This document shows, piece by piece, positions 8,960 through 39,164 of a stretch of 40,000 bases of DNA (position 1 is its first letter; each line of letters starts with the position of its first letter). The DNA comes from Salarchaeum sp. JOR-1 (GTDB taxonomy: Archaea > Halobacteriota > Halobacteria > Halobacteriales > Halobacteriaceae). The notes beneath the pieces were generated by a model. The model searched no databases. It saw only the letters and a program-made list of their open reading frames with translations, and had not been told where the DNA came from. The stretch spans positions 2,303,490-2,343,489 of the forward strand of contig NZ_CP042241.1 in assembly GCF_007833275.1 (NCBI RefSeq). The letters run 5' to 3'. The position numbers and the translations under genes were made by a program.

Positions 8960-8976
8960 CACTTGCTGGATGCGCG

Positions 8977-15583: not shown

Positions 15584-15900
15584 GCGGCCGTAAATCTACC
15601 TTCGGTAACCAATTGCGACCGGTCGTTCGACACTCAACATATCAAAACTGAATTAGAATCCGGAAGCAGTAGTCCAATCAAATAAGTTGGATACCAAGCT
15701 TCAAGTCAGGTTCGAATTTCGTCTCTCCCACTAGAAACCTAACTCAAAGCAATCAGGACTCCAATGAGGCGGGAATTTCTGGCATGAACACTAGAAGATT
15801 GCCCCGTGTCACTCTTCATCCTTATCTGGACAGTACTCCTGTACAGACTAGTAAACTATATACGGCCAACATTTCGGCTTCGCGATAACTGGGGACCTCG

Positions 15901-16440: not shown

Positions 16441-16720
16441 TTGGCTCCATTAACACTGATACGAATACTGGATCACTTTCGCGTGGGATCGATGACGAGT
16501 TAAATTCAAAACTTCTTTAAAAATGACTGGCTTCAAGTCAGACTCAATTAGTTAGTGGTTTTGCGGAAGAACAACTCGAAGCGCTTGGATATAAGTAATG
16601 TGTCTACGAGTAAGAATTTAATTTGGTCGAGAACTGATGGCGGAGTTCAAGCCAAGACTAGATAATATCGTTAATTGAGATAAGTTAATGGAAGCAATTT
16701 ATACCAGTTATTGATGAAAC

Positions 16721-18256: not shown

Positions 18257-18264
18257 ATACCTCG

Positions 18265-20507: not shown

Positions 20508-20690
20508 CTCACTCCAGTTTGGAATGTCGAGGGCCTGAAGATAGGGTCCGCGAGAACCGACGAACGGGTCATCCGAATCCGTGGTCTGGAATCGCTGATG
20601 AACGTTCCGCGCGGCGTTACCGAGGTCGCCGAGCAGGTATGCCTCATAGGCGTCCTTGATCTGTTCTGCGCGGCGAGCAGGATCGTTCAT
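20496..20690 (-). pseudogene. 3'-disrupted last gene of the defence-like operon; the last 3 codons and the stop come from the IS
   Basis: The ATG overlaps the upstream stop in an ATGA. The reading frame runs into the IS5 right IR at 20507 (…NWSE|LLY*). The left flank of the IS does not continue a convincing ORF. Confidence 0.5.
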
Positions 20691-21463
20691 CGGGTATCGA
20701 TCTCCATTCGAATTGCCGATTCGAGGTCATCGACGCCTTTCATCTCCTTGATGACCTCGACAGAGAGTTCGTTCAGACGGACGCTACCCTCCTCCGCGAA
20801 GCGCTTGAGTATGTCCATGGCATCCTCGCTCAGTCCGTGTTCCTCCTGGAACGAATCCCATCCGTGCTTTCCGGCGTTCTGTTCCCACTTATCGGTCAAG
20901 TTGTCCCACCGGGACTCCAGAGACGATAGGGTTCTGTCCTCGTCCCAGATCGACTCGTTGAGGAACGCATCCATGTCCGATAACACCTCCTCGAAATCGC
21001 TCCCGGCACCCCCGATGATCTGATTGAGGTCACGGGCGGATTCGATTTCCCCTTCCCATTCCCGCTGGTGTTCTCGAATCGCGTCTATCGTCTCGCTCCG
21101 AGCATGACGAACTACCTCTCGAGCGTCCTCGACGCTCTGGAGGATTTCATTCGTCCGCCTGTCTTCGGCCGCACTGAGCACTTCCTCATCGGTGATGTCA
21201 GAGACCTCACGGACACGACGGACCGCCCTATCTACTTCGTCGAGGCGGTCGCCGCCGAAGACGCTCGTTAGCACTCCGTCGTAGAAAAGCAGGCCTTCGA
21301 CGGACGAGTCGAGACTGCTGAGTTCCCGCCCCAAATCCCCGATGTTGTCCTTCGCTCGCCGGATCTCCGCTTCCAGATCGTTGGCCCGTTCGGCACGATC
21401 CGCTTTCTCCCCGATCTCCTCGATTTTCCGCTCGAGTTCGTCCTCGAACTGAGATTCGCTCAT
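20687..21463 (-). CDS. Acidic coiled-coil protein, function unknown
   Basis: 258 aa with heptad-like E/R/L-rich segments. It overlaps the upstream ATPase gene as TAATG. Confidence 0.75.
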
Positions 21464-24400: not shown

Positions 24401-24501
24401 ACGTGGGTCTCTCGGAAGACCTTGGGAGTCTTCTGCTGTGACTCCGGTTTGATGAAATCCTCTACGACATCTCGGTCCCAGTTGCGAACCATTTGAGTCA
24501 T
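21463..24501 (-). CDS. Large P-loop NTPase (1012 aa) with an internal poly-acidic linker
   Basis: Walker A is KGEVGSGKSH (about 24244-24267). Walker B-like is PVLICEDLT. A D/E-rich tract lies at about 22786-22938. Resemblance to BrxC/PglY- or PbeC-type defence ATPases is only a hypothesis. Confidence 0.85.
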   Translation of the reverse strand: MTQMVRNWDRDVVEDFIKPESQQKTPKVFRETHVEIDKIRAEILRPHSGDDAFVTESQFRDAVLDSDLEDDNRIFIVKGEVGSGKSHLCQWLEYEINGYGESDGTDDEHVAIHISRSNTRLDEILEILHDPIDKEYEEVNDISSLNPEDVADFIIQGLHTFYKGQGALRSFDLEEFLEPRSNAEDFRTILVENIEEYQESVEKEGQEQDIKEYLLSREDYGRICFSAFGETKREDDVYPVVRRAVHDLLTRNIGIEDFKRELEDISEAYVEEGKRPVLICEDLTTFSVLKDDLLDHIFELSSGHYDVIMGWTTGWERENIDDALSTSEDSLTYMKQRTQGYLSMTDDNGQAYFLEGQSAPVVLVKAYLDAIKEHSEASAEVPEEAFDSVYPFNEAFIRHVYANLVQDGNLQQTPRILLVHVIAECLTSDVPPFEAVQNNSYVRQRPYLIGINEHSTPCLELTQWYALKHRGQLWLPTEVFDAFGVDTHGAAEKDGNVFFDTSFAAGDVTVIEREPGAEPTSERIDTDDEDEADREPEEDESEEVEEETDEEGDEGDDEEGRPGPEPEVEVPPEDYREFQSWLMDGTEYASADRFRDGVVATLERWHDPTRLANENSTARNTTGIYFDRGSEPPVVIRGADSPASMSFEVPHGTENEELYRQMLHHGYADSFEDDANFDKLRGWATDKVVEYRGRMRRDIEGHLPEQMTIEEFVVLAHFLVMNIGKGKTDLSPELVFEGYQMEETSPLSYQSDVGIELPQGLEGAFERASNHTGDIGSLARGFFLLKENVVDYERLNEAINGVSENLDSYLSGLSTTSVDDLADAYRIGTTRNNSQKRFGKIVEDFSDLAGELEKVEQQVDVGDLQEETDHYRRFHHLSHTQEELAELYDEMESALGPLNVTHRQKWGDVGQLLNDSESDLGLGDFRSTLNEIEDAETDDAISSIALLHEYQRSLNESAAWEVYEVFAEMVEALEDAEGSEVGDFRDQVESSTEFEVFSDARDSVQQTIGGVQ

Positions 24502-25400
24502 GCTTCGTACCTCCGTTCCGACCTTTCGAGTGGGTGCCAGTACGAAGGTCTGTCTGGCGCAGCCTCGATCGTATAATCGGCTGGCGTCTGACTGTTATCG
24601 ATGCTCATCGGAAGGTCTACGACTTCACTCCGGTCGGACATCCCCGTGAGTGACAAGGCACCGTCCGCGACGAGGCTCTCTAGGACATCGGCAACCCCGA
24701 CGTGGACTGCCGGTTGTCCTCCAGTCCGACTGAAGACCGGGAAGAAATTCCCGTCGATCCACTCCAGAGCGGATAAAACGCTATCCCCGTTCGCCCGGTG
24801 ACGTTGATGGTGGAACAGCAGTTCGTGAAGCACTGCTCTGCTCGGGGACAGCAGTATCTCGTCGTGGTCAGAGGAGAACGAGAGACCTCCGAGAGGCGCG
24901 AGGAGATTCGCCCACATCAGTATTTTCTCCTCCCTCCACTCGAGGTCGTAGTCGGTCTCCCGATCGACCTCGATCACAAGGTCGTCCACGGAGACGCGAC
25001 GAACCCCGTAGTGCCCCACGTCTGCTGAGATCTCCTGAACGGCGACCTCGTAGATGGCGGCGAGGTGGGATTGCTTTCCTGTCTGCTGCCCTATGTGATA
25101 AAGGAGCCTCGGTTCGAACGTGAGTTCAAATTCTGGAAAGAGATCCCGGTTCATCGGGTTGAGGACATCTTGTCCCGTCTGTTCCACCATGTCCAATGTC
25201 CGCAAGAACCGAAGGCAGTTGTCGATGTGGTCTGTTTCGAGGCCCGACGAGCATGGACGGCCAAACCGGTTTTCGATCTGTGAAAGCGGAGTCATGGGGT
25301 CAATATCGGTATAAATTGACTTGAGTTCGGCCCCACGAACCGTCCCGTAGCCTGTCAGGAGCTTTTCCGGTTTCGACGTGTTGTATTCGTAGTCAGACAT
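24498..25400 (-). CDS. Hypothetical protein (300 aa), operon partner of the large NTPase
   Basis: Long ORF with haloarchaeal composition. It has an 8-nt overlap with the upstream gene and an ATGA overlap with the downstream gene. Confidence 0.75.
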   Translation of the reverse strand: MSDYEYNTSKPEKLLTGYGTVRGAELKSIYTDIDPMTPLSQIENRFGRPCSSGLETDHIDNCLRFLRTLDMVEQTGQDVLNPMNRDLFPEFELTFEPRLLYHIGQQTGKQSHLAAIYEVAVQEISADVGHYGVRRVSVDDLVIEVDRETDYDLEWREEKILMWANLLAPLGGLSFSSDHDEILLSPSRAVLHELLFHHQRHRANGDSVLSALEWIDGNFFPVFSRTGGQPAVHVGVADVLESLVADGALSLTGMSDRSEVVDLPMSIDNSQTPADYTIEAAPDRPSYWHPLERSERRYEA

Positions 25401-26235
25401 CGGCGTACAGTTCTGCGTTCTGTTGGCGTCGTTCGTCGAGACGATCCGTTCTAAACTGACACTGCGTGAGCATCGAATCCATGTTGTTCGCTATTTTCTG
25501 AACGTCTCCTCGTTCCGTCCACGAGCGTAACGCCTCCCGGATTCGTTCCGTGTACCTGTCGAGAATCTCCTGTAGATCGTGCTCGACGAAGTAATAGAGC
25601 GGGTCCCAGGCCGGACTGTTCGGAGGCGCCTTCTCGTAATCGAATAGTTCCGGAAGAGTGCTGGCTGGCGCACCAACGGCGTTGTGACAGTCCGAGATCT
25701 GGTGATAGTAGAGGTTTTTGGAGCCCCGGTTGGTCGAGACAGGTAACGCCGAATCTAGGTTGTCCCGGATATAGCTCGTTACCCGCGACTCGTAATCGAT
25801 CCCCTTGTTCGGCGTGAACTCATCCACGAAGGAACGCTCGGTCGTGTATGCCGGTGTCCGTGGTGCGTTGGTATCAGAGACGACGATGTAAATGTCGTCT
25901 TCTGATCGCTGCTTCAGGAGCGACCTAACGAGGTGTTGCTCGCCGTATTCGGTCAGCCCCTCTTGGCTCACGACGTGGACCAAGGGGAACTCTATCTCGT
26001 GAGGGTCTACATCCTCCGGACCGAAGTAGGTGTACGAAACTGGCTTGAAATCGTTGTCCCAGAGGTCTGTGTGTATGATCCTGTCGTACCCGTGCTCTAT
26101 CAGCAACGGGAGGCTGCGTAATTGAGCCCTCGGCTCGTGGGTGTGCTCACCGACGTATGGATCTCGAATGACGATGAGGTTCGCATACGTCTGGCCGGTC
26201 AGTGAGGAGAGCCCTGATTCCACGAGTTGTGACAA
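25393..26235 (-). CDS. Hypothetical protein (about 276-280 aa), first gene of the five-gene operon
   Basis: Long ORF. The only start candidates are TTG 26235 or GTG 26223. A TATA-like CATTTAT lies on the minus strand at about 26250. Confidence 0.7.
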   Translation of the reverse strand: MSQLVESGLSSLTGQTYANLIVIRDPYVGEHTHEPRAQLRSLPLLIEHGYDRIIHTDLWDNDFKPVSYTYFGPEDVDPHEIEFPLVHVVSQEGLTEYGEQHLVRSLLKQRSEDDIYIVVSDTNAPRTPAYTTERSFVDEFTPNKGIDYESRVTSYIRDNLDSALPVSTNRGSKNLYYHQISDCHNAVGAPASTLPELFDYEKAPPNSPAWDPLYYFVEHDLQEILDRYTERIREALRSWTERGDVQKIANNMDSMLTQCQFRTDRLDERRQQNAELYADV

Positions 26236-26279: not shown

Positions 26280-29200
26280 CTACTGCGAGCCGTGGTATTC
26301 AGGACGGGCGGGACAGTTCCAGCGTAAATCACACTCGGAACAGGTTCCCTCAGATGGCGCGTCCGCGGGAGATATGTCGAACCAATCGCCGCCTTCTCGA
26401 TCCTGTTCGATGTCATCTACGGTTTCTTCGAAAGCGGAGAGTGAACTCTCCACTGAGCCCTCTTGGAAATTGAGTTCGAAGACCGCATTGTCTCGATCGT
26501 CTTCTCCCAAAAAGTAGATGACTCCCCTCTCGGGATATTTGCCCTGCTGATAGCGGTATAGTTCTGCATAGGTGTTCAGCTGGGCTTGGTAGTCGTTCAG
26601 CTCCCGACTCCCGTCCGGCCGTTGTCCCGCCTTGTAGTCCCAGATCTCGTAACCGTCTACGTCGTCCCCCGCGAGAACGTCAACGACCCCTTCCAGAACG
26701 AAGTCATCCCGGTTGCTCTGAAGGCGGTGTTCGGTGTCAACGACTCGCGGGTAGAGCCGCTCGCCTTCCTTCCTGTTGAAGCGTTGGATGTACGAGAGCG
26801 CAGTGTCTTCGGCCTCTTGGCTCATCGGATAGATATTCCGGGCTTTCAGCGCTTCGGCCACCTCGCGGAAGTACGTGGCAATCTCGTCGTCGGTCGGGAT
26901 CGTGCCTTCGTCGATGTCCTCGATTTCACCCGCGTAGTGTCGGTGTGCTCTATCCAGCGTTTCGTGGACCACTCGTCCGAAGAAGAGCTGTGTGACGTGG
27001 TTGGGTGCGAAATCGAGTTCGTTGTAATACCCGTACTGGCGCTTACACCGGCGGTAGGCTAGGACGTCACCGGTGATGCTATACCTGCGTTTCAGCCCGA
27101 CATCGCTGTGGGGGCCGACACTTCCACCCACCAAGTTGAGGAAGTCGTCAGCGGATTCGATTTCTCTGGCCCCTGTGAACCAGTTCTCTGTCAGAGGGTC
27201 ACCTTGTTCGGTATAACCCAGGGAGAGATCAGTCGTCGCCCCCTCTTGGTCAAGTAGAAGTAGGTCGTCCTCCGCTCGGGAGTACGCCACGTAGAAGCGG
27301 CGGATCTCGTCTCGATTGGCTCTCTCGTCAGTAGTTCCAGTCGGGTGTATGTCGGCATACGGCTCTAATTGGTCCTCCAGCCAGTAGGTGCCGCCCGTCC
27401 AAGGTTCGCTGTCCAGGTCACTGACGAAGGTCACCGGGAATTCGAGGCCCTTGGCCTGGTGAACGGTCATCATCTGTACGAAGCCGTCCGGGATCTGGTC
27501 GTGGGGATCCTCTGGTTCGTCGAAATCGGACGCCTCCAGGTACCCGCAGAACACGTAGTAGAACGAGCCGAGGAATTGAGTTGATACGGACAGCGTTCTC
27601 GAAGACTTCTGCATGTGTTCCGGTCCGGTGATACTGGCGAAGGAGTCGAACAACTTGGAGAGGCGACCGAGCCTCTTCCCTCGCTCCGGGCGATCGGGAG
27701 TCTCGATCCATGTCTGGAATGGCTCGAACGAGAGGATCCGGTAGAGAAGTTCGAGGACGGTGTATCCCAGCGACTCGCTGTCACCTGCACGTCTGAGTTC
27801 GCGCCGTTTCCTGCGGACGTAACTGTCCAGCTCTGTCGCATCGTGGTCGTCAACGAACTCATCGAATTCCTCGTGCCAGTCCTCGATCTGTCCCTTAACT
27901 CGGCCCATAACGCGTGCCGCTTCCACTCCCTCCAGTTCGGGATCGAGACAGCGAATAACAGCGCTCAGCGCGAACTGGACTTCCTCCTGTTCCAGAAACG
28001 CCTTGTTTCGAGGATTGTGAACGGGAATATCCCGATCCCGGAGAGCTTCCGCGTATTTGCCGGCCCATCGGGAGGTCTCCTTCGTGCTCTTGAAAAGGAA
28101 CGCAACTTGGCTGTAATCCTCGATGTACCCTTCGTCGTGGAGCTCTTCGACTAATTCAGCCGCTGTTTCCGCGGGATGTTCGTCACTGTCACCGATCAGG
28201 AGCGACTTGACACTCTTCCGTTCCCCCGTCTCCTCCCGGCCCACGTCCATCGACTCCTTGTTCGGAGCGCGTGCCCCCTCTCGCTGCATGAGGGGGTACT
28301 CGTTCATATATCGGTTACACCAGTCCACGATATCTTCCGTAGAGCGGTAGTTCGTGTTCAACTGCTCCCGCTGAACGGATTCACCAAATCGCTCCTCAGC
28401 GCGCTCCGGGAACTGAATCAGACACTCCACGGTACCGCCCCTGAAGCGATACAGAGCCTGGTCATCGTCACCGACAACGGTTAGATTCGGACTATCGAGC
28501 TCCTCCGTCAATCGGAAGTAGAGCTCTTGCTGAAGCGGATTCGTGTCCTGGTACTCGTCAACGAGGATGTGTTCGAGAGGCGGGCGCTCGCGCTCCGGTT
28601 CCCCTTGAATGAACCGGCTGCCGGCCTCGCTTCCTATGAAGTCGATGAACCGCTCTAGAAGGCGGGCAAAGTCACATCGGTGATTCTCCTGTAGAGTCTC
28701 GCGGTATCGCTCAAGTCCCTCAGCGCAGACCCGCCACTCGGGTTCCGGGGCGCGACGCAGAGCCTCCGTGTCCGCCAAGTACTGGGACACCCGATTGAAT
28801 ATCTGAGAAGCACCATCGGTCGCCTGCCACTTGTTTGGGCCGTACTGAGGGCTGACGCCGCGCGGCAGCACCTTCTCGAAAAACTCCCACGCGTCTTCCG
28901 ATAGTTCGTCCGAAGAGACCGTCTCCCAGTTCTCTGCGTCGGCATTCCCTTGGAGAACGGACACGAAGTCACAGTTGTTGTACATGAAGAGCTGCTGACC
29001 GTCTTCGTCGAGGAGTTCTGTATTCGCGTAGGCGGGATACCGATACTCCTGCATTATATCGTTACAGAGGGAGTGAAGGGTCCCGATGTGGATTTCGTTG
29101 ACATCGACGTCGTCCTCGAATCCGAATCGGTTCAACCGGTCAACAATCCGCTCTTCCAGGTTCTGAGCGGCCTTCTCGGTGAACGTCGTGAGGAGGATAC

Positions 29201-29426
29201 TTCCCGGAGCGACGTCGTCAACGAGAAGGAGTTTGAGCGTCCGCGAGATCAGCACCTCGGTTTTTCCACTTCCCGGTCCCGCAGTAATCCAAAGCGGCCC
29301 GTCGCCCGCGAGTATCGACCGCTCTTGGCTGTCGTTGAATTCCCAGTCCTCGTCATCGAATCGCTCTCTGTTCGCTTCTTCCAGTAACGAGATGAAGGCG
29401 TCCTCAGAAAGCGGGAGAGATGGCAT
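26280..29426 (-). CDS. UvrD/Rep-type SF1 helicase fused to a C-terminal Cas4/AddB-like PD-(D/E)XK nuclease with a 4-Cys cluster
   Basis: Walker A is AGPGSGKTE. Other helicase motifs are TFTEKAA, ILVDEYQDTN and MTVHQAKGLEF. The C-terminal region has C(RRCKRQY), EIWDYK and CSECDLRWNC, i.e. the C-x2-C-x5-C pattern. Confidence 0.9.
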   Translation of the reverse strand: MPSLPLSEDAFISLLEEANRERFDDEDWEFNDSQERSILAGDGPLWITAGPGSGKTEVLISRTLKLLLVDDVAPGSILLTTFTEKAAQNLEERIVDRLNRFGFEDDVDVNEIHIGTLHSLCNDIMQEYRYPAYANTELLDEDGQQLFMYNNCDFVSVLQGNADAENWETVSSDELSEDAWEFFEKVLPRGVSPQYGPNKWQATDGASQIFNRVSQYLADTEALRRAPEPEWRVCAEGLERYRETLQENHRCDFARLLERFIDFIGSEAGSRFIQGEPERERPPLEHILVDEYQDTNPLQQELYFRLTEELDSPNLTVVGDDDQALYRFRGGTVECLIQFPERAEERFGESVQREQLNTNYRSTEDIVDWCNRYMNEYPLMQREGARAPNKESMDVGREETGERKSVKSLLIGDSDEHPAETAAELVEELHDEGYIEDYSQVAFLFKSTKETSRWAGKYAEALRDRDIPVHNPRNKAFLEQEEVQFALSAVIRCLDPELEGVEAARVMGRVKGQIEDWHEEFDEFVDDHDATELDSYVRRKRRELRRAGDSESLGYTVLELLYRILSFEPFQTWIETPDRPERGKRLGRLSKLFDSFASITGPEHMQKSSRTLSVSTQFLGSFYYVFCGYLEASDFDEPEDPHDQIPDGFVQMMTVHQAKGLEFPVTFVSDLDSEPWTGGTYWLEDQLEPYADIHPTGTTDERANRDEIRRFYVAYSRAEDDLLLLDQEGATTDLSLGYTEQGDPLTENWFTGAREIESADDFLNLVGGSVGPHSDVGLKRRYSITGDVLAYRRCKRQYGYYNELDFAPNHVTQLFFGRVVHETLDRAHRHYAGEIEDIDEGTIPTDDEIATYFREVAEALKARNIYPMSQEAEDTALSYIQRFNRKEGERLYPRVVDTEHRLQSNRDDFVLEGVVDVLAGDDVDGYEIWDYKAGQRPDGSRELNDYQAQLNTYAELYRYQQGKYPERGVIYFLGEDDRDNAVFELNFQEGSVESSLSAFEETVDDIEQDREGGDWFDISPADAPSEGTCSECDLRWNCPARPEYHGSQ

Positions 29427-29865: not shown

Positions 29866-30225
29866 CTACTCGTCCGGTTCTCCGAGAGATACCGACTTAG
29901 TGAATGCACACACCATAGCATATTGGTTGAGTCGGTCTGTAACCCTGATCTCCTTCCGTTGCTCATCATATTCAACGAGGCCGGCTGAAGCGAGCCTAGG
30001 CAGATGCCGTTGAATCAGCCCGTTGTAGGCCGATTCGTACTCATCTGCTCCGATTCGATGAGGGGGTGTGCCGGTTTCAACAGCGCGGATTACTCGCGCG
30101 ACATGTCGAACCTCGACATCGACACCTGAGTCAAACATCGAGAGGTACTCAACAACCAGAAACCGCCTTTGATTCCCCAGGAGGGCGTGAACCTCGGCAG
30201 GTTTGTATCCCTCAGTGACGCTCAT
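29866..30225 (-). CDS. Winged-helix regulator of the DUF7344 type
   Basis: LLGNQRRFLVVEYL...HVARVI...YNGLIQRHLPRLASAGLVEYD follows the same pattern as the gene at 3503..3961. Confidence 0.7.
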   Translation of the reverse strand: MSVTEGYKPAEVHALLGNQRRFLVVEYLSMFDSGVDVEVRHVARVIRAVETGTPPHRIGADEYESAYNGLIQRHLPRLASAGLVEYDEQRKEIRVTDRLNQYAMVCAFTKSVSLGEPDE

Positions 30226-30435: not shown

Positions 30436-31131
30436 TTATGTCTCGGTATAGTCCGGCCGCTTCGCGTAATCGATGGGATCACGCTCGCCGAGATTTTGGA
30501 ACGCCTGAAGGCGGAACGCACACGCGTCGCAGGTACCGCAAGCCGGTTCTTCCTCCCGGTAGCAGCTCCACGTGTGTTCGTAGGGGACGTCGAGTTCGAG
30601 CCCTCGTTCGGCGATGTCGGTCTTCGACCACTCGTCGAACGGAGCTTCGATACTGATCTCCGTCTCGGGTTTCGTGCCGACGTCAACGACCTGCTGGAAC
30701 GCCTCGAAGAACTCGGGGCGGCAGTCAGGATATCCCGAGAAGTCCTCGGTATGGGCGCCGATGAACACCGCATCGCACTCCTTGGCTTCCGCGTACGAGG
30801 TCGCCATGGAGAGGAGGTTGGCGTTCCGGAACGGAACGTAGGAGGACGGAATCTCGTCGCCTTCCAAATCCGCGTCTTCGACCTCCATCTCGTCGTCGGT
30901 GAGACTCGAGGATCCAATCTTCGAGAGGTGATCCGTCGTGAGGTGGAGGAAGTCCGCGGCGTCGAAGGCTTCGGCCTGCGCCTTCGCGCATTCCAACTCC
31001 TTGCTCTCGGTCTGCTGGCCGTACGACGTGTGGAGCAGGTATAGGTCGTAGCCGGCGTCCTGAGCGACTGCGGCAGCAGTTGCGCTGTCCATCCCACCCG
31101 ACGCCAGGACGACCGCCCGCGGACGGCTCAT
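30436..31131 (-). CDS. queC: 7-cyano-7-deazaguanine (preQ0) synthase QueC
   Basis: The PP-loop is LASGGMDS. The C-terminal zinc site reads WSCY...CGTCDACAFR. Confidence 0.93.
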   Translation of the reverse strand: MSRPRAVVLASGGMDSATAAAVAQDAGYDLYLLHTSYGQQTESKELECAKAQAEAFDAADFLHLTTDHLSKIGSSSLTDDEMEVEDADLEGDEIPSSYVPFRNANLLSMATSYAEAKECDAVFIGAHTEDFSGYPDCRPEFFEAFQQVVDVGTKPETEISIEAPFDEWSKTDIAERGLELDVPYEHTWSCYREEEPACGTCDACAFRLQAFQNLGERDPIDYAKRPDYTET

Positions 31132-31736
31132 AGGTCTTCCTCCCGGACAATCGCGTCGCGGAACTGTTCTCGTTCCTCCTCAGTCAGATCTCCGACGGAG
31201 GCCCTCGTGGTGGTCGTACTTTCCGTCTCTACGCCGCGCATCGCCTCGCAGAGGTGTGTCGCGTTGACCTCGACGAGTACCGCGGGAGCATCTATCTCAT
31301 CGGCGAGTCCAGAGGCGATGTCGTTCGTCAGCCGTTCCTGCATCGTTAGCTGTCGTGTCTGCCAGCGGACGTACCGCGTGAGTTTCGACAGGCCGACGAC
31401 TTCTCCGTCCGGTCGGTATGCGACGTGGGCCGTCCCGAAGAACGGCAGCAGGTGGTGTTCGCACAGGGAGTAAATCGGGATATCCGTCTTGACGACGAGG
31501 TCGTCGGTCTGGGCGTCGAACGTTCGCATCGTCGGCTTCGATGCTTCCCGCTGGCCCTCTGTGAGGGTCCTAAAGGTCTCGGGAACGCGACGCTGCCACG
31601 TCTCGGTGAGCCCATGGCGCTCGGGATCTTCCCCCACCGCTTCTAACAGGAGGCGGACGCCGCGCTGTGCTTTCTCGTAGTCGATGTCTCTCTCGCTGCC
31701 AGTCTGCTGCTTCAGTTCGGAATGTGAGTTCGTCAT
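31128..31736 (-). CDS. folE: GTP cyclohydrolase I (FolE type)
   Basis: 202 aa from ATG 31736. Diagnostic segments are SLCEHHLLPFFGTAHVAY and VVGLSKLTR. The ORF-track extension to 32189 overlaps queE out of frame. Confidence 0.9.
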   Translation of the reverse strand: MTNSHSELKQQTGSERDIDYEKAQRGVRLLLEAVGEDPERHGLTETWQRRVPETFRTLTEGQREASKPTMRTFDAQTDDLVVKTDIPIYSLCEHHLLPFFGTAHVAYRPDGEVVGLSKLTRYVRWQTRQLTMQERLTNDIASGLADEIDAPAVLVEVNATHLCEAMRGVETESTTTTRASVGDLTEEEREQFRDAIVREEDL

Positions 31737-31737
31737 G

Positions 31738-32511
31738 CTACGTACCAGGAGCGTCGTTCCAGAGATCCACATGCAGTCGCGGAGTGTATCGATAGCCGTG
31801 CTCCATCGCCAGTTCCGCGACCTCGATTCGCTTTTTGTCGAGTTCCTCGCGGGTCGTACCCTCCGGCATGAGGAGGACATCCGAGTCGGGAACACGACTA
31901 GATGCTGTACTTCGAATGTCTTCGACCAGATCCTCGATTTCGGGCATGTCATCGGGACCGGTAACGACGAATTTGAGTTGGGTGTCGTACTCGTCAACAA
32001 GTTCTCCGAGGGCGTCGAGATCGATCCGACGGTCGTCGTGGCGCTCGGCCCACTCGCCGTTACCTTTCGGATCTTTGTCCGGCGTCGGGGCGCTCGATGC
32101 GAGTTTCGGGCTGATGCTCGCCAAGTCGATGGGTACGTCTCGATAGATAGTTCCGTTCGTCTCCACGGTCGTGTGGTAGCCGCGGTCATCGAGACGCTCT
32201 AGGAGCGAGACCGCCTCGTCGTGGATGAGTGGCTCACCTCCCGTCAGGACGACGTGCTCGGCGTTCTCGTGTGACTCAACCTCCGCAACGATGTCGTCGA
32301 GACTCATGTTGGCGTGGGTGGGCTCCCACGAGGTGTGGTAGGAATCACAGAACCAACACCGGAGGTTACAACCACTCGTCCGAACGAACACCGACGGTTC
32401 CCCTGTGAGTTTCCCCTCGCCTTGGAGTGAGTAGAAGAGTTCGTTGATCGGGAGCGTCTCTCCGTCGGCGTTTGGAGTCTTCCCCTGATCGGGGGTCGAA
32501 TTCACTGGCAT
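31738..32511 (-). CDS. queE: 7-carboxy-7-deazaguanine synthase QueE (radical SAM)
   Basis: FYSLQGEG and the cluster motif CNLRCWFCD are present. Confidence 0.92.
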   Translation of the reverse strand: MPVNSTPDQGKTPNADGETLPINELFYSLQGEGKLTGEPSVFVRTSGCNLRCWFCDSYHTSWEPTHANMSLDDIVAEVESHENAEHVVLTGGEPLIHDEAVSLLERLDDRGYHTTVETNGTIYRDVPIDLASISPKLASSAPTPDKDPKGNGEWAERHDDRRIDLDALGELVDEYDTQLKFVVTGPDDMPEIEDLVEDIRSTASSRVPDSDVLLMPEGTTREELDKKRIEVAELAMEHGYRYTPRLHVDLWNDAPGT

Positions 32512-32972
32512 TACTGAGTAGCTCCCGCACAGAGTTCTGAGGTCTCTCTGACTCGAGCTGAGACATCCGATACCGAGTCCGGAAGTGCTGCGAGGAGTTT
32601 GCGCTCCAAGACGACACTCATCACCTCCGCCGTAGGTGGATAATCTAGTACGACGACCCCGTCACCTTCGCCGCTCTGCTCGAATGCGTCAATCAAGGGA
32701 TCGCCTTCCTCGAGGAGAAATCGATGATCCCACTCAGATATTATTGAAGTAATATCTCCTTTGTCCACTATCCACCCGTCTTCGGAGAGTGTCCCCGTGA
32801 CTTTGACTGATACCTGATAATTGTGACCGTGCGGACGACTGCACTTTCCGTCGTGATGTAGGATGCGATGCCCTGTGCTGATTCTAATCGGACGGTCCTC
32901 GCCCACGTATAGTGTTCGCTCACCTGCTTCGGCGAGTTGGGGCGAGGACTCCTGTTCTAAGGACATGGACAC
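32511..32972 (-). CDS. queD: 6-carboxy-5,6,7,8-tetrahydropterin synthase QueD
   Basis: The PTPS-fold motifs HRILHHDGKCSRPHGHNY are present. The start is GTG 32972 or ATG 32966. It overlaps queE as TAATG. Confidence 0.9.
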   Translation of the reverse strand: MSMSLEQESSPQLAEAGERTLYVGEDRPIRISTGHRILHHDGKCSRPHGHNYQVSVKVTGTLSEDGWIVDKGDITSIISEWDHRFLLEEGDPLIDAFEQSGEGDGVVVLDYPPTAEVMSVVLERKLLAALPDSVSDVSARVRETSELCAGATQ

Positions 32973-33090: not shown

Positions 33091-35994
33091 ATGAGGTTCT
33101 ACGTTCCTGAGTGGGATGATGCGGTCGATGCGAACTACGATTTCGAGCATGACGAACTCTCCACCCTCGACCGTCAGGAGCGCGAGCTCAACTACATCTG
33201 GGACATCTTCGACCGCGAGACAACGCCTATCGACGGAGTGCTTATTTCCCGTGAACAGGTAGAGGAGACTAAAAAGAAGGCGGAGCGCCTGGCTCAATAC
33301 GGCGTCTACGATGACCCCGTTCTCTCAGTTCCGGACTGGCTTCCGACTATCAGTGACTGCGGAGCTTGGGGGTACAAATCGCTCCCCTTCCCGCCCTATG
33401 GAAACGAGGAGATGCTCGATTTCTACGAGACTTTGGAGGTCTCCGTAGGGGTCACGATCGATCATCTCGTGCTCGGGTCTGGTAAGGACAAGGGACGCCT
33501 CTACCTCGATGAACGGGCCTTCGGAGACGGGTTCGAAGAGAGCGACATTCCCGACGCTCTCGAAGATGTCGTTGACCTGATGATCGACGAATGGCCTGAC
33601 GAGTGGCCTGAGTACGTTGACGAATACGAGCCCTCTATTCAAGCTGAAGATGGCTCAAGCGTGGAGCCCTTTAGTTCCGGCACTTTCCGTGGCGATATCG
33701 ATGCCGTTCTAACTGAGTTGGAACACGATCCGCGTGCCGTCTATCGGGCCGACGACAAAACGTTCCGCTACAATCTCACCCTCCGCAATGCCCGGGAAAT
33801 GTACGAGTTGTACCAGGCCGAGGATCGCCCCTTCCGTCTCATGGTGGCGATTCAAGGCTGGGATCCCGAATCATATGTCGAAGCCGCTGAGGAGGTACTC
33901 GACATCGGGTACGGCTACCTCGGCATCGGGGGCGTTGCGGGGAGTCCAGTCCACGAAGTGAGGAAGATCGTTAAGGACGTCGGGAAGACCATCAAGGCGT
34001 TCGAACGTGAGCACAACAGACGGGTCGATTCTCACGTTTTTGGTTTTGCGAAGTCTGAGGCGTTCGAAACCATCGGTCGTTCCGGAATGTCGAGTTTCGA
34101 CAGTGCGAGTATGTTGCGTTCAGCCTGGACTGGAGGCGAGAACTACCGCCTAAATAACGACAAACGATACGACGCTATTCGAGTACGGTATCCGTCCAAC
34201 GGTGACGACCTCCGAGAGGCCGTCGAAAAGTCACTCCGAGGTAGGGAGGTTCTCGTTTCCTTACGCGCCTATGACGCAGAGAACTCGATTGAGGAGGAAA
34301 TCTGGAACTGGCACCGGAAAGCTGAGGAGGTGCTTCCTGCGACCCGTGATTATCTGCGCGACCAACGGCACGACGAGCGGTATAACGCGTCCAGGTTACA
34401 GGACATCGAGACAGCATTCCGGGATGATTTCGAGTACGCCAGGGAGCTTCAAGCCTCCTTCAGCGACGACCTGCGAGGGCGGATCGTTAAACTCCTTCGT
34501 GAGGACACCGCCGAGGACCCGATACCCTTCGTGGAGTATGATGAACTGCTCACGGTAGCGGAAGAAGAATTTGAGAAATTCCCGCGGATGCCGGCGGCTT
34601 TCAATAGTCAGGAGCACCAGAACCCCTACGACCACGTCTGGACTGCCGTCCGGGACTATGCCGAGTGGATTGGAGACGATGGTCTATTGGAGGAGTACCG
34701 AGATACCCTGAGGGACCGACCGTGGGAGAAGTGCGAGTGTCCCATCTGCGAGACGAACGGGATCGAGGTCTGCATCTTCCGCGGCAACGACCGAAACCGG
34801 CGTCGCGGCTTCCACAATACCCGCCGCTTCTACGACGAGTTCGCCGCGGAACTCCCAAAACTGCTCGTCGCTGTCGAGGGAACTGCCAAACTGAGCCGCT
34901 TCGAGTCGATCGAAGAGTACCTCCGAAGCGAACACCCCGACTTCTGGGAGCGCGTACACGACCTGCCGGTCGCGGAGGTCGGCGTCATCGACGCGGGGGG
35001 AGTTCACGAATCGTGGTCTGGAACGCCGTCTACTGTCTCCTTCTCGCCAGATAGGGTGGAGGAGAATTTAGCGGCACAAACAGCACGCTATCAAAAGTTG
35101 TTCCTCCTCACGACCGGCGGGGAAGCGAGCGACGCCATTTCCGGAGCCGTTGAGCAGAGTGGTTGCGAACTCCACACGTTTAGTGAGTCCGAAGCCCTAC
35201 GAGAAGGGGCACTTGATGCGTGTGGTCGAAACTACGTCGCCGGTGATGATTTCGTTCCTCATCCTCCCGAGCTCGATGTCCGTGAGGGGTTGGATGTCCT
35301 CGTCATCGACCAGTGTTCCGGTTCCAAAGATATCCCAGAGGGGGCTCCCGTCTTCGATGCAGATGAGACGCTGGAATTTTCGAAGGAAGACCTGCTGAGT
35401 CGAGACAACGTTCCTGGAATTGCCGCGCGGGATCTCTATACTGGCCGACAACAGGGATTCGTGAAGGACGCTGCACGCCGGTTACGTAGTCAGGGTCACG
35501 ACGTTGAGCGATACTTCATAAGTGCTGGGTTCGGACTCGTGACCGAGGAGGAATTGCTCCCTCCCTACGAGGTGACGTTCAGTTCGATGAACGTCGGAGA
35601 AATAAGAGAGCGGTCTCGCCTCCTCGGAATCCAAGAGGACCTGAGAAAAGTATTGCACGAGACAGACTACGATGTCGTCTTCTTCACTCTCGGGAGCGAT
35701 TACTACACGAGCATCGATATTGACGAGATGGTTCAGCAAGTCCGTCCGGACCGTATCGGAGTGGTGTTCAACCGTGAACTAGTCGGTGATCAATTCGAGA
35801 ACATTGTGTCGGTCCCCGCCCGAACGGAAGATGCGAAGAACCACGGTACAATCGTCGTAGGGCTGAAAGGACTCTATATGAAGAATTTCGCCCAACGTCT
35901 TGAGAATGTAGATATGTTGGAACCGGATAATATCGAGTACCTTTGCCGGCACGTAGAAGACGGCCCGACTCAGGCGGCTTTCGAGAAGTTTTAG
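33091..35994 (+). CDS. DpdA-like (TGT-superfamily) transglycosylase fused to a C-terminal domain of about 330 aa of unknown function
   Basis: The N-terminal MRFYVPEWDDAVDANYDFEHD resembles the start of bacterial DpdA. TGT-fold hallmarks are present: LGIGGVAG, FGFAK...MSSFDSAS. The zinc motif is CECPICE...FHN. The C-terminal part has VLVIDQCSGSK, LYTGRQQ, ISAGFGLV and PPYEVTF. Confidence 0.8.
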   Translation: MRFYVPEWDDAVDANYDFEHDELSTLDRQERELNYIWDIFDRETTPIDGVLISREQVEETKKKAERLAQYGVYDDPVLSVPDWLPTISDCGAWGYKSLPFPPYGNEEMLDFYETLEVSVGVTIDHLVLGSGKDKGRLYLDERAFGDGFEESDIPDALEDVVDLMIDEWPDEWPEYVDEYEPSIQAEDGSSVEPFSSGTFRGDIDAVLTELEHDPRAVYRADDKTFRYNLTLRNAREMYELYQAEDRPFRLMVAIQGWDPESYVEAAEEVLDIGYGYLGIGGVAGSPVHEVRKIVKDVGKTIKAFEREHNRRVDSHVFGFAKSEAFETIGRSGMSSFDSASMLRSAWTGGENYRLNNDKRYDAIRVRYPSNGDDLREAVEKSLRGREVLVSLRAYDAENSIEEEIWNWHRKAEEVLPATRDYLRDQRHDERYNASRLQDIETAFRDDFEYARELQASFSDDLRGRIVKLLREDTAEDPIPFVEYDELLTVAEEEFEKFPRMPAAFNSQEHQNPYDHVWTAVRDYAEWIGDDGLLEEYRDTLRDRPWEKCECPICETNGIEVCIFRGNDRNRRRGFHNTRRFYDEFAAELPKLLVAVEGTAKLSRFESIEEYLRSEHPDFWERVHDLPVAEVGVIDAGGVHESWSGTPSTVSFSPDRVEENLAAQTARYQKLFLLTTGGEASDAISGAVEQSGCELHTFSESEALREGALDACGRNYVAGDDFVPHPPELDVREGLDVLVIDQCSGSKDIPEGAPVFDADETLEFSKEDLLSRDNVPGIAARDLYTGRQQGFVKDAARRLRSQGHDVERYFISAGFGLVTEEELLPPYEVTFSSMNVGEIRERSRLLGIQEDLRKVLHETDYDVVFFTLGSDYYTSIDIDEMVQQVRPDRIGVVFNRELVGDQFENIVSVPARTEDAKNHGTIVVGLKGLYMKNFAQRLENVDMLEPDNIEYLCRHVEDGPTQAAFEKF

Positions 35995-36044
35995 CTTCGA
36001 CTCCGTTAATAAATCTCATTTCTTTTATCATTCTATCGGGCTAG

Positions 36045-36070
36045 TATTTAAGTTGGATAGCGAGCTATCC
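36045..36070 (+). promoter_or_regulatory. TATA-like TTTAAG box followed by the palindrome ggatagc-ga-gctatcc
   Basis: tatttaag lies at about 36045-36052. The perfect 7-bp-arm palindrome lies at 36055-36070, just before ATG 36082. Confidence 0.4.
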
Positions 36071-36081
36071 GAGCGGGAGGC

Positions 36082-37116
36082 ATGTTGTACAGACGACGGA
36101 AACTCGACCTCCCGCATGGGAAGGTGCAAACCCCAGTGCTATTCCCTGTCCGCAATATCGGGAAGCGGTCGAGTGACAATACGCCGGCGTACGTCGGCAC
36201 TATCCCGGACTTCTCGACAGCGATGATTAACGCTCGTTCGATCCGGAACCGGGAACCAATGTGGAACAGGCTAACCAACGGAGTCACGTTACGGGAAGAG
36301 ATGGATGTCCCAGAGGACACGATAGTCTTCGCCGATAGCGGGGGGTTCGATTTCACCGCCGAGGAGATCGACACTACCCCAGCAGAAACTCTCGATACCC
36401 AGGCCCAACTGGGAGCGGATATATACGGAACTGTCGATGTCCCCCTTTCGAGAGAGAACCGCGCAGCGGAAAATCAACGTCGTATCGACCAGAGCGTCGA
36501 ATACGCTCTCGAGGCAAGTGATCGCCACACGGGAGACGCGTTGCTCTTCGCAAGCGTGCACGGGTATGATCCCGAGACCATCCGGAACAGCATCCAGCAT
36601 CTAGAAAAGAATGGGGATTTCGATGGATACGCTCTCGGAAGTATGGTCCCCATCCGAACCGACTACAAAAAGGTAACCAAACTAGTACTTTCGGCGAGAC
36701 AGGCTACAGACAAGCACTTGCACGTGTATGGTCTCGGCGGCATCGTCTACCAACCGCTCCTGCTGTACCTCGGTGTCGATAGCTTCGATTCCTCGGCGTT
36801 CATCCGAAGTGCGGGCAATCGGAACTATTTGATTCCCGGATTCGGTGGCGAACCGCTACGGAACATTGAGTCGTTAGATAGACTCCCCTGCCCGTGCCCT
36901 GTGTGTGGACAGCGGGAACTAGACGAGATCCGTGAGGACCGGACCGCTCTCACCAAACACAACCTCTGGGCTCTGGCGATTGAACTCAGGCGATTCCGGT
37001 ACGTCGTCGAAGCGGGACGGGACGTTGAGGAGTATCTCGACCTCCGGTTCCAGGGGAACGAGGTGACGCGACGGGCATACGAAACCGCCAAGCAGCAAGT
37101 GCGGAGGCTCACATGA
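36082..37116 (+). CDS. Compact TGT-family transglycosylase (no PUA domain), DpdA-like
   Basis: 344 aa. Diagnostic segments are FADSGGFDF, YALGSMVP and VYGLGGIVYQPLLLYLGVDSFDSSAFIRSA. The zinc motif is CPCPVCG followed by ...KHN. Confidence 0.85.
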   Translation: MLYRRRKLDLPHGKVQTPVLFPVRNIGKRSSDNTPAYVGTIPDFSTAMINARSIRNREPMWNRLTNGVTLREEMDVPEDTIVFADSGGFDFTAEEIDTTPAETLDTQAQLGADIYGTVDVPLSRENRAAENQRRIDQSVEYALEASDRHTGDALLFASVHGYDPETIRNSIQHLEKNGDFDGYALGSMVPIRTDYKKVTKLVLSARQATDKHLHVYGLGGIVYQPLLLYLGVDSFDSSAFIRSAGNRNYLIPGFGGEPLRNIESLDRLPCPCPVCGQRELDEIREDRTALTKHNLWALAIELRRFRYVVEAGRDVEEYLDLRFQGNEVTRRAYETAKQQVRRLT

Positions 37117-38009
37117 CCGAAGAGAGGGCCACAATCCGACCAGTCAACCTAAGCCGCTTGGTGGAACTCACCCACGTATGCGAAGAGGGAACCAAATCCA
37201 CGGAGGAAGTCGAGGTTGCCCTCGACGTCAGCCACAAACGTGCGCGAGAGGCCATCCTCGAAGCAGAACGTGTCTCGCTATTGTCTGAGAAGGGTGACGA
37301 AGAGGAGTCCGTTTACGAGACCACTGATATTGGAGAGTCGTTTTTAGAGGCTGTCCGAGAGGAGGACTGGGAACGCGCTAGTTCCATCCTTGCCACCCAC
37401 AGTCCTCACTACAAGTCGTTCATCGAGACTTTAGACGAGGATGGGCAGGGCAGTTTAGATGCCCTATTGGAACGACTTGAAGATACCCAAGAGTTCACCC
37501 CGTACTCGTTCAACCAGACCGGGATTGAGGTCGTCGGTGACTGGGCGGAGCGTCTGGGACGCGTCCAACGCAACGCATTCTCCGGAAGTTACTACCTGAC
37601 GGACCGTTCTGAAGTGCCGCCGAACTTCCACTTCGTGTTGCTCGAAGTTTACGACGACCTCGAACAGACTGCGGGGGTGGACTTGCGTCAACGGTATCTG
37701 TCGATTCCGAGACTCCGCGAAGAAGTATGCGAACGGCTCGGTTGTACCCGCGATAACTTCGACGACGCCTTGCTCGCGGTATGTCAGCAAAACGTAGGTA
37801 AACTCGAACTCTCGGGCGCCCCTCTGGACTCAGCAGCAAAGGACGCCGCTCTCGGCATCAAGCAGATGAAACGGTCCGATGAAGACGGGCTCGTGACGAC
37901 ATCCCAGTCCACACAGCAGGTAATGAACGGAGTGGAACTGTACGACAAACAATACTACTATCTCGCGGTGTACGACCGCGACATCACGTTCGATACGGAG
38001 GCTTCCTAG
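37113..38009 (+). CDS. Hypothetical protein with a probable N-terminal winged helix
   Basis: 298 aa. It has an ATGA overlap with the TGT-like gene, and its stop abuts the next ATG. The N-terminal LSRLVELTHVCEEGTKSTEEVEVALDVSHKRAREAI is HTH-like. Confidence 0.7.
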   Translation: MTEERATIRPVNLSRLVELTHVCEEGTKSTEEVEVALDVSHKRAREAILEAERVSLLSEKGDEEESVYETTDIGESFLEAVREEDWERASSILATHSPHYKSFIETLDEDGQGSLDALLERLEDTQEFTPYSFNQTGIEVVGDWAERLGRVQRNAFSGSYYLTDRSEVPPNFHFVLLEVYDDLEQTAGVDLRQRYLSIPRLREEVCERLGCTRDNFDDALLAVCQQNVGKLELSGAPLDSAAKDAALGIKQMKRSDEDGLVTTSQSTQQVMNGVELYDKQYYYLAVYDRDITFDTEAS

Positions 38010-39164
38010 ATGTCCAACGCATTCACGATTAGTGACGAACAGCAAGACTACTCACAATACGACCTAAACGCGAATCCGTTCCCGTACAGCCCGGTTCCGA
38101 ACGAGAATCCCGAAATCTACTGCGGGCAGCAACACGTCTCCGACAAGATCAGTTCGACGGTATCATCGATGCTCGCCACTGGGAAGTCCAAGCACCTCGT
38201 GGTGACTGGGAAGTACGGAAACGGGAAGTCACACACGCTCAAATACACGCGCTCCTTGCTACGAGACCGGGAAGATGTCGTCGTCGGATACGTGGCGCAA
38301 CCCGGCGATGGATTCCTCGACATCTACCACGAGTTCGTGTACGATCTTGGATTCAACCGGATTCAGGAGTTAGCCTACGAGTACCTCGCCTCGGTTACCC
38401 GCGACGTCACGGACACCAATCCGATGGGTGCAGAATCGATGGAGTCACTCATCGACGAAGGAGATGTCCTGTTATCCGATATCGTACCAGAAGCCATCCG
38501 AAGACTCAGCGACGTCACCAAGTTCGCCGACTTCGCCAGGGCGATCGTCCATATGGTCTACGAGGACACGAACCTCTACGCCTGGCAGTGGCTGACTGCG
38601 GAGGGGATCCGGTACGAACAGCGTAAGGAGATGGAGATTCACAGCGCCCTCGACGACGACACGATGGGGGTTCGAGCGTTCACTGCCTTCAAGAACATGC
38701 TGTTGGACCTCGGGTACACCGGCGTGTTCGTGTTCGTAGACGAGTTCGAGAGCATCGCACGACTCACCCCGAAGAACGAACAGGCGACACTCAACAGCAT
38801 CCGGCACCTGATGGATCAGAACAGCTCAGGCCTTTGCATCTTGTTCGGTTGCGCTCCAGAAGTGTGGCAGGACGTTATGAGCGAATATCACGCTTTCAGC
38901 GAGCGAATTGGACAGGAGGTTTCGTTACGTCCGTTAACCAGCGAACATCTCTACGAACTGGTCGAGAACTACCTCGATAAGGAACGGCCATCAACTGTCG
39001 AGAGTCGCATCCGGCCATTCACCGAGGAGAGCCTCGATTTGATTCTCCAGCGGTCACAAGGAAACGTACGTCAAGTTCTGGCTCTATGTAGCCGTATATT
39101 GGACGATGCGGCAAACGAAAACCGTCAAGAAATCACTGTAGATTTCGTAGAAGAGGCGATTTAA
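38010..39164 (+). CDS. AAA+ ATPase (Orc/Cdc6-clade-like, without a winged-helix domain)
   Basis: Walker A is GKYGNGKSH. Walker B is VFVFVDEFES. The sensor-2-like segment is GNVRQVLALCSRILDDA. Confidence 0.8.
   Translation: MSNAFTISDEQQDYSQYDLNANPFPYSPVPNENPEIYCGQQHVSDKISSTVSSMLATGKSKHLVVTGKYGNGKSHTLKYTRSLLRDREDVVVGYVAQPGDGFLDIYHEFVYDLGFNRIQELAYEYLASVTRDVTDTNPMGAESMESLIDEGDVLLSDIVPEAIRRLSDVTKFADFARAIVHMVYEDTNLYAWQWLTAEGIRYEQRKEMEIHSALDDDTMGVRAFTAFKNMLLDLGYTGVFVFVDEFESIARLTPKNEQATLNSIRHLMDQNSSGLCILFGCAPEVWQDVMSEYHAFSERIGQEVSLRPLTSEHLYELVENYLDKERPSTVESRIRPFTEESLDLILQRSQGNVRQVLALCSRILDDAANENRQEITVDFVEEAI

Follow-up and report, generated by a model that had tools for sequence, protein, structure and literature searches.

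To our knowledge, 7-deazaguanine marks in cellular DNA have been demonstrated in bacteria only, and bacterial DpdA requires the ParB-like ATPase DpdB. The Salmonella DpdA (PDB 7UI4) is a DNA preQ0 insertase, that is, a DNA-guanine transglycosylase. The DpdA subfamilies described comprise the viral DpdA1-4 together with bDpdA (PMC10516641). Published dpd island surveys name no phyla other than bacterial ones (PMC12235509), and the sole archaeal cellular mention that we found is one sentence on a possible host DpdA in Haloarcula (PMC6884629). Here we describe a 40,000-nt stretch of Salarchaeum sp. JOR-1 (GCF_007833275.1, contig NZ_CP042241.1, positions 2,303,490 to 2,343,489; hereafter the window), which encodes two neighboring proteins of the tRNA-guanine transglycosylase (TGT) superfamily: a 967-aa fusion of DpdA and a DpdC-like domain, and a 344-aa short TGT (sTGT) that is 100% identical to a protein of that organism. 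The sTGT gene is followed by those of an uncharacterized conserved partner, protein X, and of a BrxD-like ATPase. We put it at slightly better than an even chance that the two open reading frames (ORFs) belong to an archaeal form of Dpd 7-deazaguanine modification-restriction, in which a DNA-directed module replaces DpdB. In the literature searched we found no account of a two-TGT architecture, an archaeal fusion or a BrxD-like ATPase partner; older papers may mention them.

The preliminary description of this DNA had picked out two adjacent ORFs, 33091-35994 (+, 967 aa) and 36082-37116 (+, 344 aa), and both hold up; they lie 87 bp apart on the same strand. The TGT zinc motif that it had read in each was found again, as C548-E-C550-P-I-C553 ... 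H575 in the 967-aa protein and C270-P-C272-P-V-C275 ... H293 in the 344-aa protein, as were the (S)FDS(A/S) barrel motifs (GMSSFDSAS, with D337, and GVDSFDSSA, with D236). Its statement that neither protein carries the PUA domain agrees with Pfam and with the alignment to Pyrococcus arcTGT (PDB 1IQ8), which reveal no C1, C2 or PUA domain in either, and its point that described Dpd systems have one DpdA is borne out by the literature (PMC10164549, PMC12235509). Its term "TGT/DpdA-like paralogues" stands in part: the 967-aa protein is a DpdA and both belong to the TGT superfamily, but the 344-aa protein is no DpdA copy and forms a family of its own. The two share only ~26% identity across 103 residues and are thus distant paralogues. 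In neither has any catalytic Asp or the zinc site been lost, which speaks against the decay that had been raised as a possibility. The preliminary description had also offered three readings of the pair, a heteromeric enzyme, two sequence specificities or two successive base exchanges, and any of these may hold.

The fusion protein (33091-35994, +) was characterized with NCBIfam, PADLOC, Pfam, PDB and Foldseek comparisons. Its DpdA TIM-barrel domain (residues ~1-590; 33091-34860, +) contains a long helical insertion (residues ~370-545), and is followed by a confidently modeled alpha/beta linker domain of ~145 residues (residues ~591-735; 34861-35295) and by a DUF6884/DpdC-like domain (residues ~736-960; 35296-35970). 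Most of the excess length over the 344-aa protein lies in the DUF6884 domain, the linker domain and the barrel insertion. Against the NCBIfam DpdA equivalog NF041059 the protein scores 275.3 bits (cut-off 200), and Bathyarchaeal and metagenomic orthologues score 294-330 bits; PADLOC recognizes both DpdA (expectation value (E) 3e-73) and DpdC (E 1e-7). The sole PDB sequence match is 7UI4 (E 2e-40). With an AlphaFold2 model built on 39 homologues, with a predicted local distance difference test score (pLDDT) of 79.4, the best Foldseek hit is again 7UI4 (E 6e-18, target-normalized template modeling score 0.71), as against ~1e-5 for bacterial tRNA TGTs and 2e-3 for arcTGT. The model shows the DpdA fold, including the insertions specific to DpdA. 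Residues D89, D124-H125, Q255 and D337 and the zinc ligands C548/C550/C553/H575 are invariant in the 39 homologues. In the Salmonella enzyme D95 and D256 are essential for exchange and D130 is a base-binding residue (PMC10164549), and these three correspond to D89, D337 and D124 of the fusion, respectively. Salmonella His181 is replaced by Gln255, as in the cyanobacterial DpdA described below. The linker domain cannot fit in the 557-608-aa fusion proteins of Bathyarchaeia and metagenomes, which are too short for it.

DUF6884 is a domain of DpdC (PMC12235509) with the motifs CxxxK and (L)SAxxG (PMC11701544). The fusion carries both as C742-SGS-K746 and I-S811-A-G-F-G815, of which C742...K746 and S811-G815 are invariant in the 39 homologues, and its C-terminal domain aligns to the N-terminal DpdC-like domain of a cyanobacterial DpdC-DpdA protein (E 5e-17). 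DUF6884 is also found as a separate gene of ~235 aa in some haloarchaea (loci L005, L007 and L096). Judged by these matches, the 967-aa protein joins a true bacterial-type DpdA to a DUF6884 domain of the DpdC-like kind. The cyanobacterial protein, WP_015211588, which is annotated as DpdA, is encoded on a plasmid of Allocoleopsis/Microcoleus PCC 7113, whose DpdC-DpdA cluster includes the bacterial sequences most closely related to the DpdA domain (34-38% identity). The two clusters share the joining of DpdA and DUF6884 in one polypeptide, and the cyanobacterial one has a DEAD helicase of ~1700 aa and a phospholipase D (PLD) nuclease, as do the Halobacterium salinarum and Bathyarchaeal loci. They differ in domain order, DUF6884 being N-terminal in PCC 7113, and in that the PCC 7113 cluster has DndB/DpdB and lacks sTGT, protein X and the BrxD-like ATPase. 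Adjoining its DpdC-DpdA gene is a 294-aa protein, WP_015211589 (2922-3806 of the plasmid locus, L089), with motifs that recall a TGT barrel (FFIDSGIF, ALGGLL and ADSTTW). This protein is the top non-TGT target of our local TGT hidden Markov models (HMMs), a weak match (single-target E 3e-4) that is not significant by hhalign; bacterial clusters, too, may contain a second TGT-like protein in degenerate form.

The sTGT protein (36082-37116, +) consists of a catalytic barrel, a zinc subdomain and two C-terminal helices. TGT is its sole Pfam domain (E 7e-30), and its best PDB match is arcTGT 1IQ8 (E 2e-22), to whose residues 23-337 it aligns; it stops where the arcTGT C1 domain would start (~337 of the 582-residue 1IQ8 chain). 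Over this catalytic domain the arcTGT residues D95, D130 and D249 are matched by sTGT D85, D119 and D236, and the zinc ligands are matched too, but sTGT has His in place of Gln169. D85, D119, H160, D236 and the zinc ligands C270/C272/C275/H293 are kept family-wide, and D85, D119, D236 and the zinc site are kept in relatives down to ~30% identity. The protein falls far below the NCBIfam cut-offs for arcTGT (TIGR00432; 141 bits, cut-off 350), bacterial TGT (45 bits, cut-off 307) and DpdA (38 bits, cut-off 200), whereas the arcTGT model gives 593 bits on a genuine haloarchaeal arcTGT (P0281). A HMMER scan of 1.8 billion cluster representatives ranked a stand-alone family of ~340-360 aa ahead of canonical arcTGTs. 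Unlike arcTGT, sTGT has an accessory, island-borne distribution.

In bootstrapped neighbor-joining trees (269-329 columns, rooted on bacterial TGT) the arcTGT clade forms without the short proteins (72-93% bootstrap), all short TGTs form a clade within which the DpdA clade is nested (99-100%), the family of sTGT itself is recovered at 75-88%, and bacterial and archaeal DpdA group together at 100%. Neighbor joining is a modest method for such divergent sequences and the placement of the long DpdA branch is unreliable, but the exclusion of sTGT from the arcTGT clade is stable. Neither TGT-fold protein thus groups with arcTGT, the check that the preliminary description had proposed, and the tree and the HMM cut-offs together rule out a housekeeping arcTGT identity of sTGT.

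The viral DpdA1-4 are likewise short proteins of the TGT fold that stand alone, and DNA is their presumed substrate (PMC6884629, PMC10516641). They differ from sTGT in that some phage DpdAs have lost the zinc site, which is complete in sTGT, and in that sTGT is encoded by cells, beside a bacterial-type DpdA. sTGT has no PHROG match at E <= 0.01, no Pfam match to DUF6610 (DpdA4), no match in IMG/VR and no halovirus relative. By tblastn of 50,697 phage records its only viral relatives are TGT-like proteins of STSV-type Sulfolobus viruses (STSV1/STSV2), at 24.6% identity over 50% of the query. An origin of sTGT from a phage or halovirus DpdA was ruled out on the PHROG, DUF6610, phage-database and IMG/VR results. 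By these comparisons sTGT belongs to a strongly conserved short TGT-fold family of its own, which is not arcTGT, bacterial DpdA or phage DpdA. A scan of a genome collection with a short-TGT alignment recovered mostly bacterial housekeeping TGTs and two useful loci. Two proteins of ~655 aa (P0293 and P0311) have a short-TGT-like barrel, 39-40% identical to sTGT, followed by a C-terminal domain with the motif PC-x3-KPY-x2-S-x2-H in P0293, which we take to be the ArcS signature motif, and a close variant ending in K rather than H in P0311. These proteins hint at a kinship between DUF6884/DpdC and the ArcS C-domain and at the existence of other kinds of TGT fusion.

Protein X (298 aa; 37113-38009, +) starts with an ATG that overlaps the sTGT stop codon (ATGA), and the 384-aa ATPase (38010-39164, +) starts directly after the protein X stop codon (TAGATG). 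Judging from these junctions, the sTGT, X and ATPase genes are translationally coupled. Protein X has homologues next to sTGT in every locus examined (29-72% identity) and no match in Pfam, NCBIfam, PADLOC, PHROG or PDB; its profile gave only noise against PDB, and weak N-terminal winged-helix signals were seen in it and likewise in Pfam scans of eight orthologues. The ATPase is an ORC/Cdc6-type AAA+ protein of the BrxC/BrxD family (Pfam BrxC_BrxD, 62.7 bits, cut-off 22.2; NCBIfam and PADLOC BrxD, E ~2e-12), with intact Walker A (GKYGNGKS, residue 67) and Walker B (VDEFE, residue 243) motifs. In non-halophilic members sTGT, X and the fusion are basic (isoelectric point 8.9-9.8; 8.9-9.4 for X) and the ATPase is acidic.

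In Ssp modification, and by proposal in the BREX-related capture (BRC) system, a modifying enzyme works with a BrxC-family ATPase and a protein of ~300 aa that binds DNA (PMC12839542). The archaeal trio resembles them in joining a TGT-fold enzyme to an ORC/Cdc6-type BrxC/BrxD ATPase and a putative DNA binder of ~300 aa, a combination that is a suggested route to 7-deazaguanine marking without DpdB. The archaeal island differs from BRC in having both DpdA and DpdC, which BRC lacks, and in that X does not match DUF4007. HerA/FtsK (universal in BRC), PglZ, GNAT and STAND NTPase were absent from the window ORFs scanned; in some metagenomic loci only, HerA-like or PglZ genes border the module.

Each TGT-fold family has ~390 homologues in a collection of 5.8 billion proteins; the majority come from Halobacteria, and members of both families frequently share a contig. 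The 384 homologues of sTGT are 74-100% identical and come from many haloarchaeal genera, and sTGT shares 40% identity with orthologues from Bathyarchaeia that have the same gene context. The fusion (or split DpdA and DUF6884), sTGT, X and the ATPase co-occur in 12 of 13 archaeal loci, which include the window, Halobacterium salinarum, Natronomonas, Halobonum, H. bonnevillei, two Bathyarchaeal metagenome-assembled genomes (MAGs) and several metagenomic contigs. On each of the nine haloarchaeal plasmids in PLSDB that have a DpdA gene, sTGT lies 1-6 kb from it, and the converse also holds. Gene order varies, but sTGT-X-ATPase is contiguous in all loci. The fusion gene is in the same operon in L087, L093 and haloarchaea, forming a four-gene co-directional block in L087 and L093, and is on the opposite strand in L086, L088 and L094. 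Genes for preQ0 occur in most loci (L087, L095 and the 7.6-kb contig L096 showed none), as do helicase or nuclease genes. Between JOR-1 and H. salinarum, identity is 86% for the ATPase, 83% for sTGT, 72% for X and 70% for the fusion. The dN/dS (nonsynonymous to synonymous substitution) ratio of the sTGT gene is ~0.03-0.11, with dS saturated. Both TGT genes are real and under selection, and their pairing, kept across two archaeal phyla, is meaningful and no local duplication.

Like bacterial Dpd, the archaeal island has a DpdA of that family with matching zinc and catalytic residues, a DUF6884 domain of the DpdC type, preQ0 genes next to it and a mobile-island location, and among its neighbors are large helicases, a DpdH-like protein and a nuclease, PLD or other. 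The bacterial system, dpdA-K of Salmonella Montevideo (PMC10164549, PMC5699537), differs in that the archaeal island has no DpdB in the loci searched, joins DpdA and DpdC in one protein, and adds an operon in which X and a BrxD-like ATPase accompany a second TGT-fold enzyme; its hosts are archaea and its restriction genes only partly homologous, DpdH being the one member of dpdD-K with a match in the window. Searches by tblastn with Enterobacter DpdB and PCC 7113 DndB found no DpdB/DndB at E < 0.01 in the window and seven archaeal loci, and the window ORFs scanned have no Pfam match to DndB or ParB.

The system most likely writes 7-deazaguanine into the cell's own DNA for defense against viruses. 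FolE, QueD, QueE and QueC, encoded beside the fusion gene, would make preQ0, and the DpdA domain would swap guanine for preQ0 in DNA, as in the bacterial system (PMC10164549); by the same parallel, the fused DpdC-like domain would then convert the nitrile, probably into dADG (2'-deoxy-7-amido-7-deazaguanosine), an amide. Gene anatomy suggests that sTGT would act on DNA in complex with X and the ATPase. This step is proposed because of the translational coupling of the three genes, the basic isoelectric points of sTGT, X and the fusion, the filling of the place of DpdB, and the logic of BRC and Ssp. X may supply DNA or site binding and the ATPase may open or load DNA, so that the trio would form an ATP-driven base-exchange module doing the job of DpdB. 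sTGT could be a second preQ0 insertase, either with target sites of its own or working together with the DpdA fusion, and the neighboring helicase-nucleases would attack unmodified foreign DNA.

The division of labor between the two TGT-fold proteins can be read otherwise. TGT enzymes act as dimers (PMC6884629), and the eukaryotic TGT is a heterodimer of two paralogues (PMC10164549); together with the strict co-inheritance of the two TGT genes, this is what would be expected if sTGT were an auxiliary, QTRT2-like partner that holds DNA for the DpdA domain, the latter alone being catalytic. QTRT1-QTRT2 indeed offers the likeness of two diverged TGT paralogues needed together, but QTRT2 has lost its catalytic site, whereas both archaeal sites are intact and the substrate is presumed to be DNA. 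We regard such a heterodimer as unlikely, since in Halobacteria and Bathyarchaeia alike sTGT keeps its catalytic Asps, the Asp and His of base recognition, and the zinc site, which is unexpected for a purely structural subunit, and since its linkage to the fusion gene, which stands on the opposite strand in L086, L088 and L094, is looser than that to X and the ATPase. The conserved catalytic residues would also suit a trio that does not modify DNA at all and serves the restriction arm as effector or as discriminator of self and non-self. A TGT-fold enzyme displaces guanine and not an installed 7-deazaguanine, so it would react only at unmodified foreign sites, where a covalent or abasic intermediate would flag the DNA for the helicase-nucleases. 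The bacterial system manages with one transglycosylase, and the trio resembles the ATPase and DNA-binding modules of BREX-related systems (PMC12839542). Such a sensor is nonetheless without precedent, and with preQ0 present the exchange would finish and leave the foreign DNA modified; the trio also stays constant while the nuclease modules vary among loci, and we think a sensing role improbable.

Still a little less probable, in our estimation, is that only the 967-aa protein acts on DNA and that sTGT is a minimal arcTGT that puts the island's preQ0 into tRNA of the host or of viruses. In HMM and PDB comparisons alike, sTGT matches arcTGT best, and its GSMVP resembles the arcTGT segment GGVVP that favors preQ0 (PMC5699537). 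However, sTGT falls outside the arcTGT clade and far below the equivalog cut-off and lacks C1, C2 and PUA, canonical haloarchaeal arcTGTs form a separate family (P0281, 593 bits), and sTGT is patchily distributed on plasmids and islands, always coupled to a BrxD-like ATPase and beside defense-type helicases and nucleases. The idea that the sTGT gene has no function, being a duplicate in decay or an ORF arisen by chance, can draw on its small size and nothing else, and has almost no chance of being true: 384 homologues, Bathyarchaeal orthologues in the same context and the dN/dS ratio all speak for a maintained gene, and the kept catalytic and zinc residues together with the low dN/dS refute it.

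Several observations weigh against the archaeal Dpd variant that we favor. By HMM score sTGT is nearer to arcTGT than to DpdA (141 and 38 bits), and loss of the PUA domain does not abolish the activity of arcTGT on tRNA, so sTGT may have a tRNA substrate. The window protein scores 29.9 bits against Pfam DUF6884 (PF21818), just under the cut-off of 30, and no NCBIfam model named DpdC matched the fusion at E <= 0.01, for which two reasons the chemistry of the C-terminal domain is only inferred; elsewhere PF21818 reaches 64.9 bits on the L086 orthologue and 39.4 bits on the PCC 7113 protein. Protein X has no recognizable fold, and its single-sequence AlphaFold2 model has a pLDDT of 38. One locus (L092) has sTGT-X-ATPase with QueC and QueD and no DpdA in its visible 13 kb, a further 6.5 kb being unseen. 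Finally, 7-deazaguanine in the DNA of the archaea that carry the island is itself a prediction.

The island would be a widespread archaeal counterpart of bacterial Dpd, present in many haloarchaeal genera and in Bathyarchaeia. If the proposal is confirmed, sTGT would represent a sixth DNA-directed TGT subfamily and the trio would reveal a DpdB-free way of driving base exchange in duplex DNA. 2'-Deoxy-7-cyano-7-deazaguanosine (dPreQ0) or dADG would be predicted in the genomes of model haloarchaea, for instance some strains of Halobacterium salinarum and Haloferax, and the finding would bear on the interplay of hosts with those haloviruses that carry 7-deazaguanines themselves. Were the sensor reading true instead, restriction would be triggered by a base-exchange enzyme.

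Divergent from the fusion gene lies an operon that begins with QueD (6-carboxytetrahydropterin synthase; 32511-32972, -; Pfam PTPS, E 4e-19) and continues with QueE (31738-32511, -; Pfam Radical_SAM and Fer4_12), FolE (GTP cyclohydrolase I; 31128-31736, -; Pfam GTP_cyclohydroI) and QueC (preQ0 synthase; 30436-31131, -; Pfam QueC, E 4e-75). Together these four can provide a complete preQ0 pathway. The mechanically called FolE ORF (31128-32189, 353 aa) overlaps QueE, with GTP_cyclohydroI at residues 176-341; FolE homologues are 200-202 aa, and the real start is most likely at 31736, giving 202 aa. In the Bathyarchaeal island L094 a 221-aa protein (16959-17624) beside the preQ0 genes has a weak Pfam match to DUF5591, presumably the ArcS C-domain family, and this island may make a further 7-deazaguanine derivative.

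Beyond the preQ0 operon lie candidate restriction genes. A 1048-aa UvrD-type helicase fused to a PD-(D/E)XK nuclease (26280-29426, -; Pfam UvrD-helicase, UvrD_C and PDDEXK_1) has homologues in the islands L007 and L094 (36-46% identity) and is a candidate restriction component. The four co-directional genes that follow (20687-26235, -) encode proteins of 280 aa (25393-26235), 300 aa (24498-25400), 1012 aa (21463-24501) and 258 aa (20687-21463) and are candidates for restriction or sensing. The 1012-aa protein has a DpdH-like P-loop N-terminus, matching PADLOC DpdH at E 1e-13 and NCBIfam DpdH at 79.6 bits (cut-off 450) over residues 8-135 only (128 residues). The same trio is present in Natronomonas L005 (305, 289 and 1125 aa), and L094 has a set of similar sizes (290, 287, 903 and 232 aa), of which only the 903-aa product is weakly similar to the DpdH-like protein. 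Restriction genes of the JOR-1 type recur in Natronomonas and H. bonnevillei, and a Bathyarchaeal MAG has the UvrD and nuclease parts. A DEAD helicase of ~1800 aa and a PLD nuclease, a pair of the DpdJ/DpdK kind, are found instead in H. salinarum, L086 and L088. In two haloarchaeal-type loci a GmrSD-type (type IV, modified-DNA-dependent) restriction gene adjoins sTGT-X-ATPase (L005, 7254-9287; L096, 4677-7343). In two non-halophilic loci the trio is separated from the DpdA-DpdC gene by a protein of 567-581 aa that has TFIIB-like cyclin repeats at its C-terminus (L088, 11862-13607; L095, 13131-14834) and may be a fifth component or a regulator.

A DUF7344 winged-helix protein gene (29866-30225, -) directly flanks QueC, and in Halobacterium salinarum a DUF7344 gene lies just past the ATPase; the protein may regulate the island. 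A second DUF7344 gene is found at 3503-4033 (-). The promoter and terminator scan, with bacterial-type models that do not cover archaeal promoters, found sites no commoner than in shuffled sequence. The G+C content of the island is 55-58%, against 62-67% at 8-14 kb of the window, and a DDE transposase gene (19650-20474, +) lies at its edge. Its lower G+C content, the adjacent transposase and its plasmid location in other species indicate that the island is mobile.

Outside the island, G+C content drops to 46-47% at 15000-19000, a stretch that contains a gene for a Polysacc_synt-family membrane protein of polysaccharide biosynthesis (16721-18256). Beside it are a PAPS-reductase-like gene (14156-15175) and a type I phosphodiesterase-like gene (12806-14152), and none of the three genes has a PADLOC match; membership of the window in BRC, BREX type 4 or Ssp was rejected, the genes at 12.8-15.2 kb having no PADLOC match or link to the module. 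A 366-aa ORF (8042-9142, -) has weak PADLOC matches to Cmr3 (E ~2e-6), of which no stretch passes alone. An IS605-type TnpB gene is located at 1321-2640 (+). Two Orc1/Cdc6 genes lie at 5516-6736 (+) and 7034-7987 (-); the second encodes 317 aa with lid and winged-helix domains only and may be truncated.

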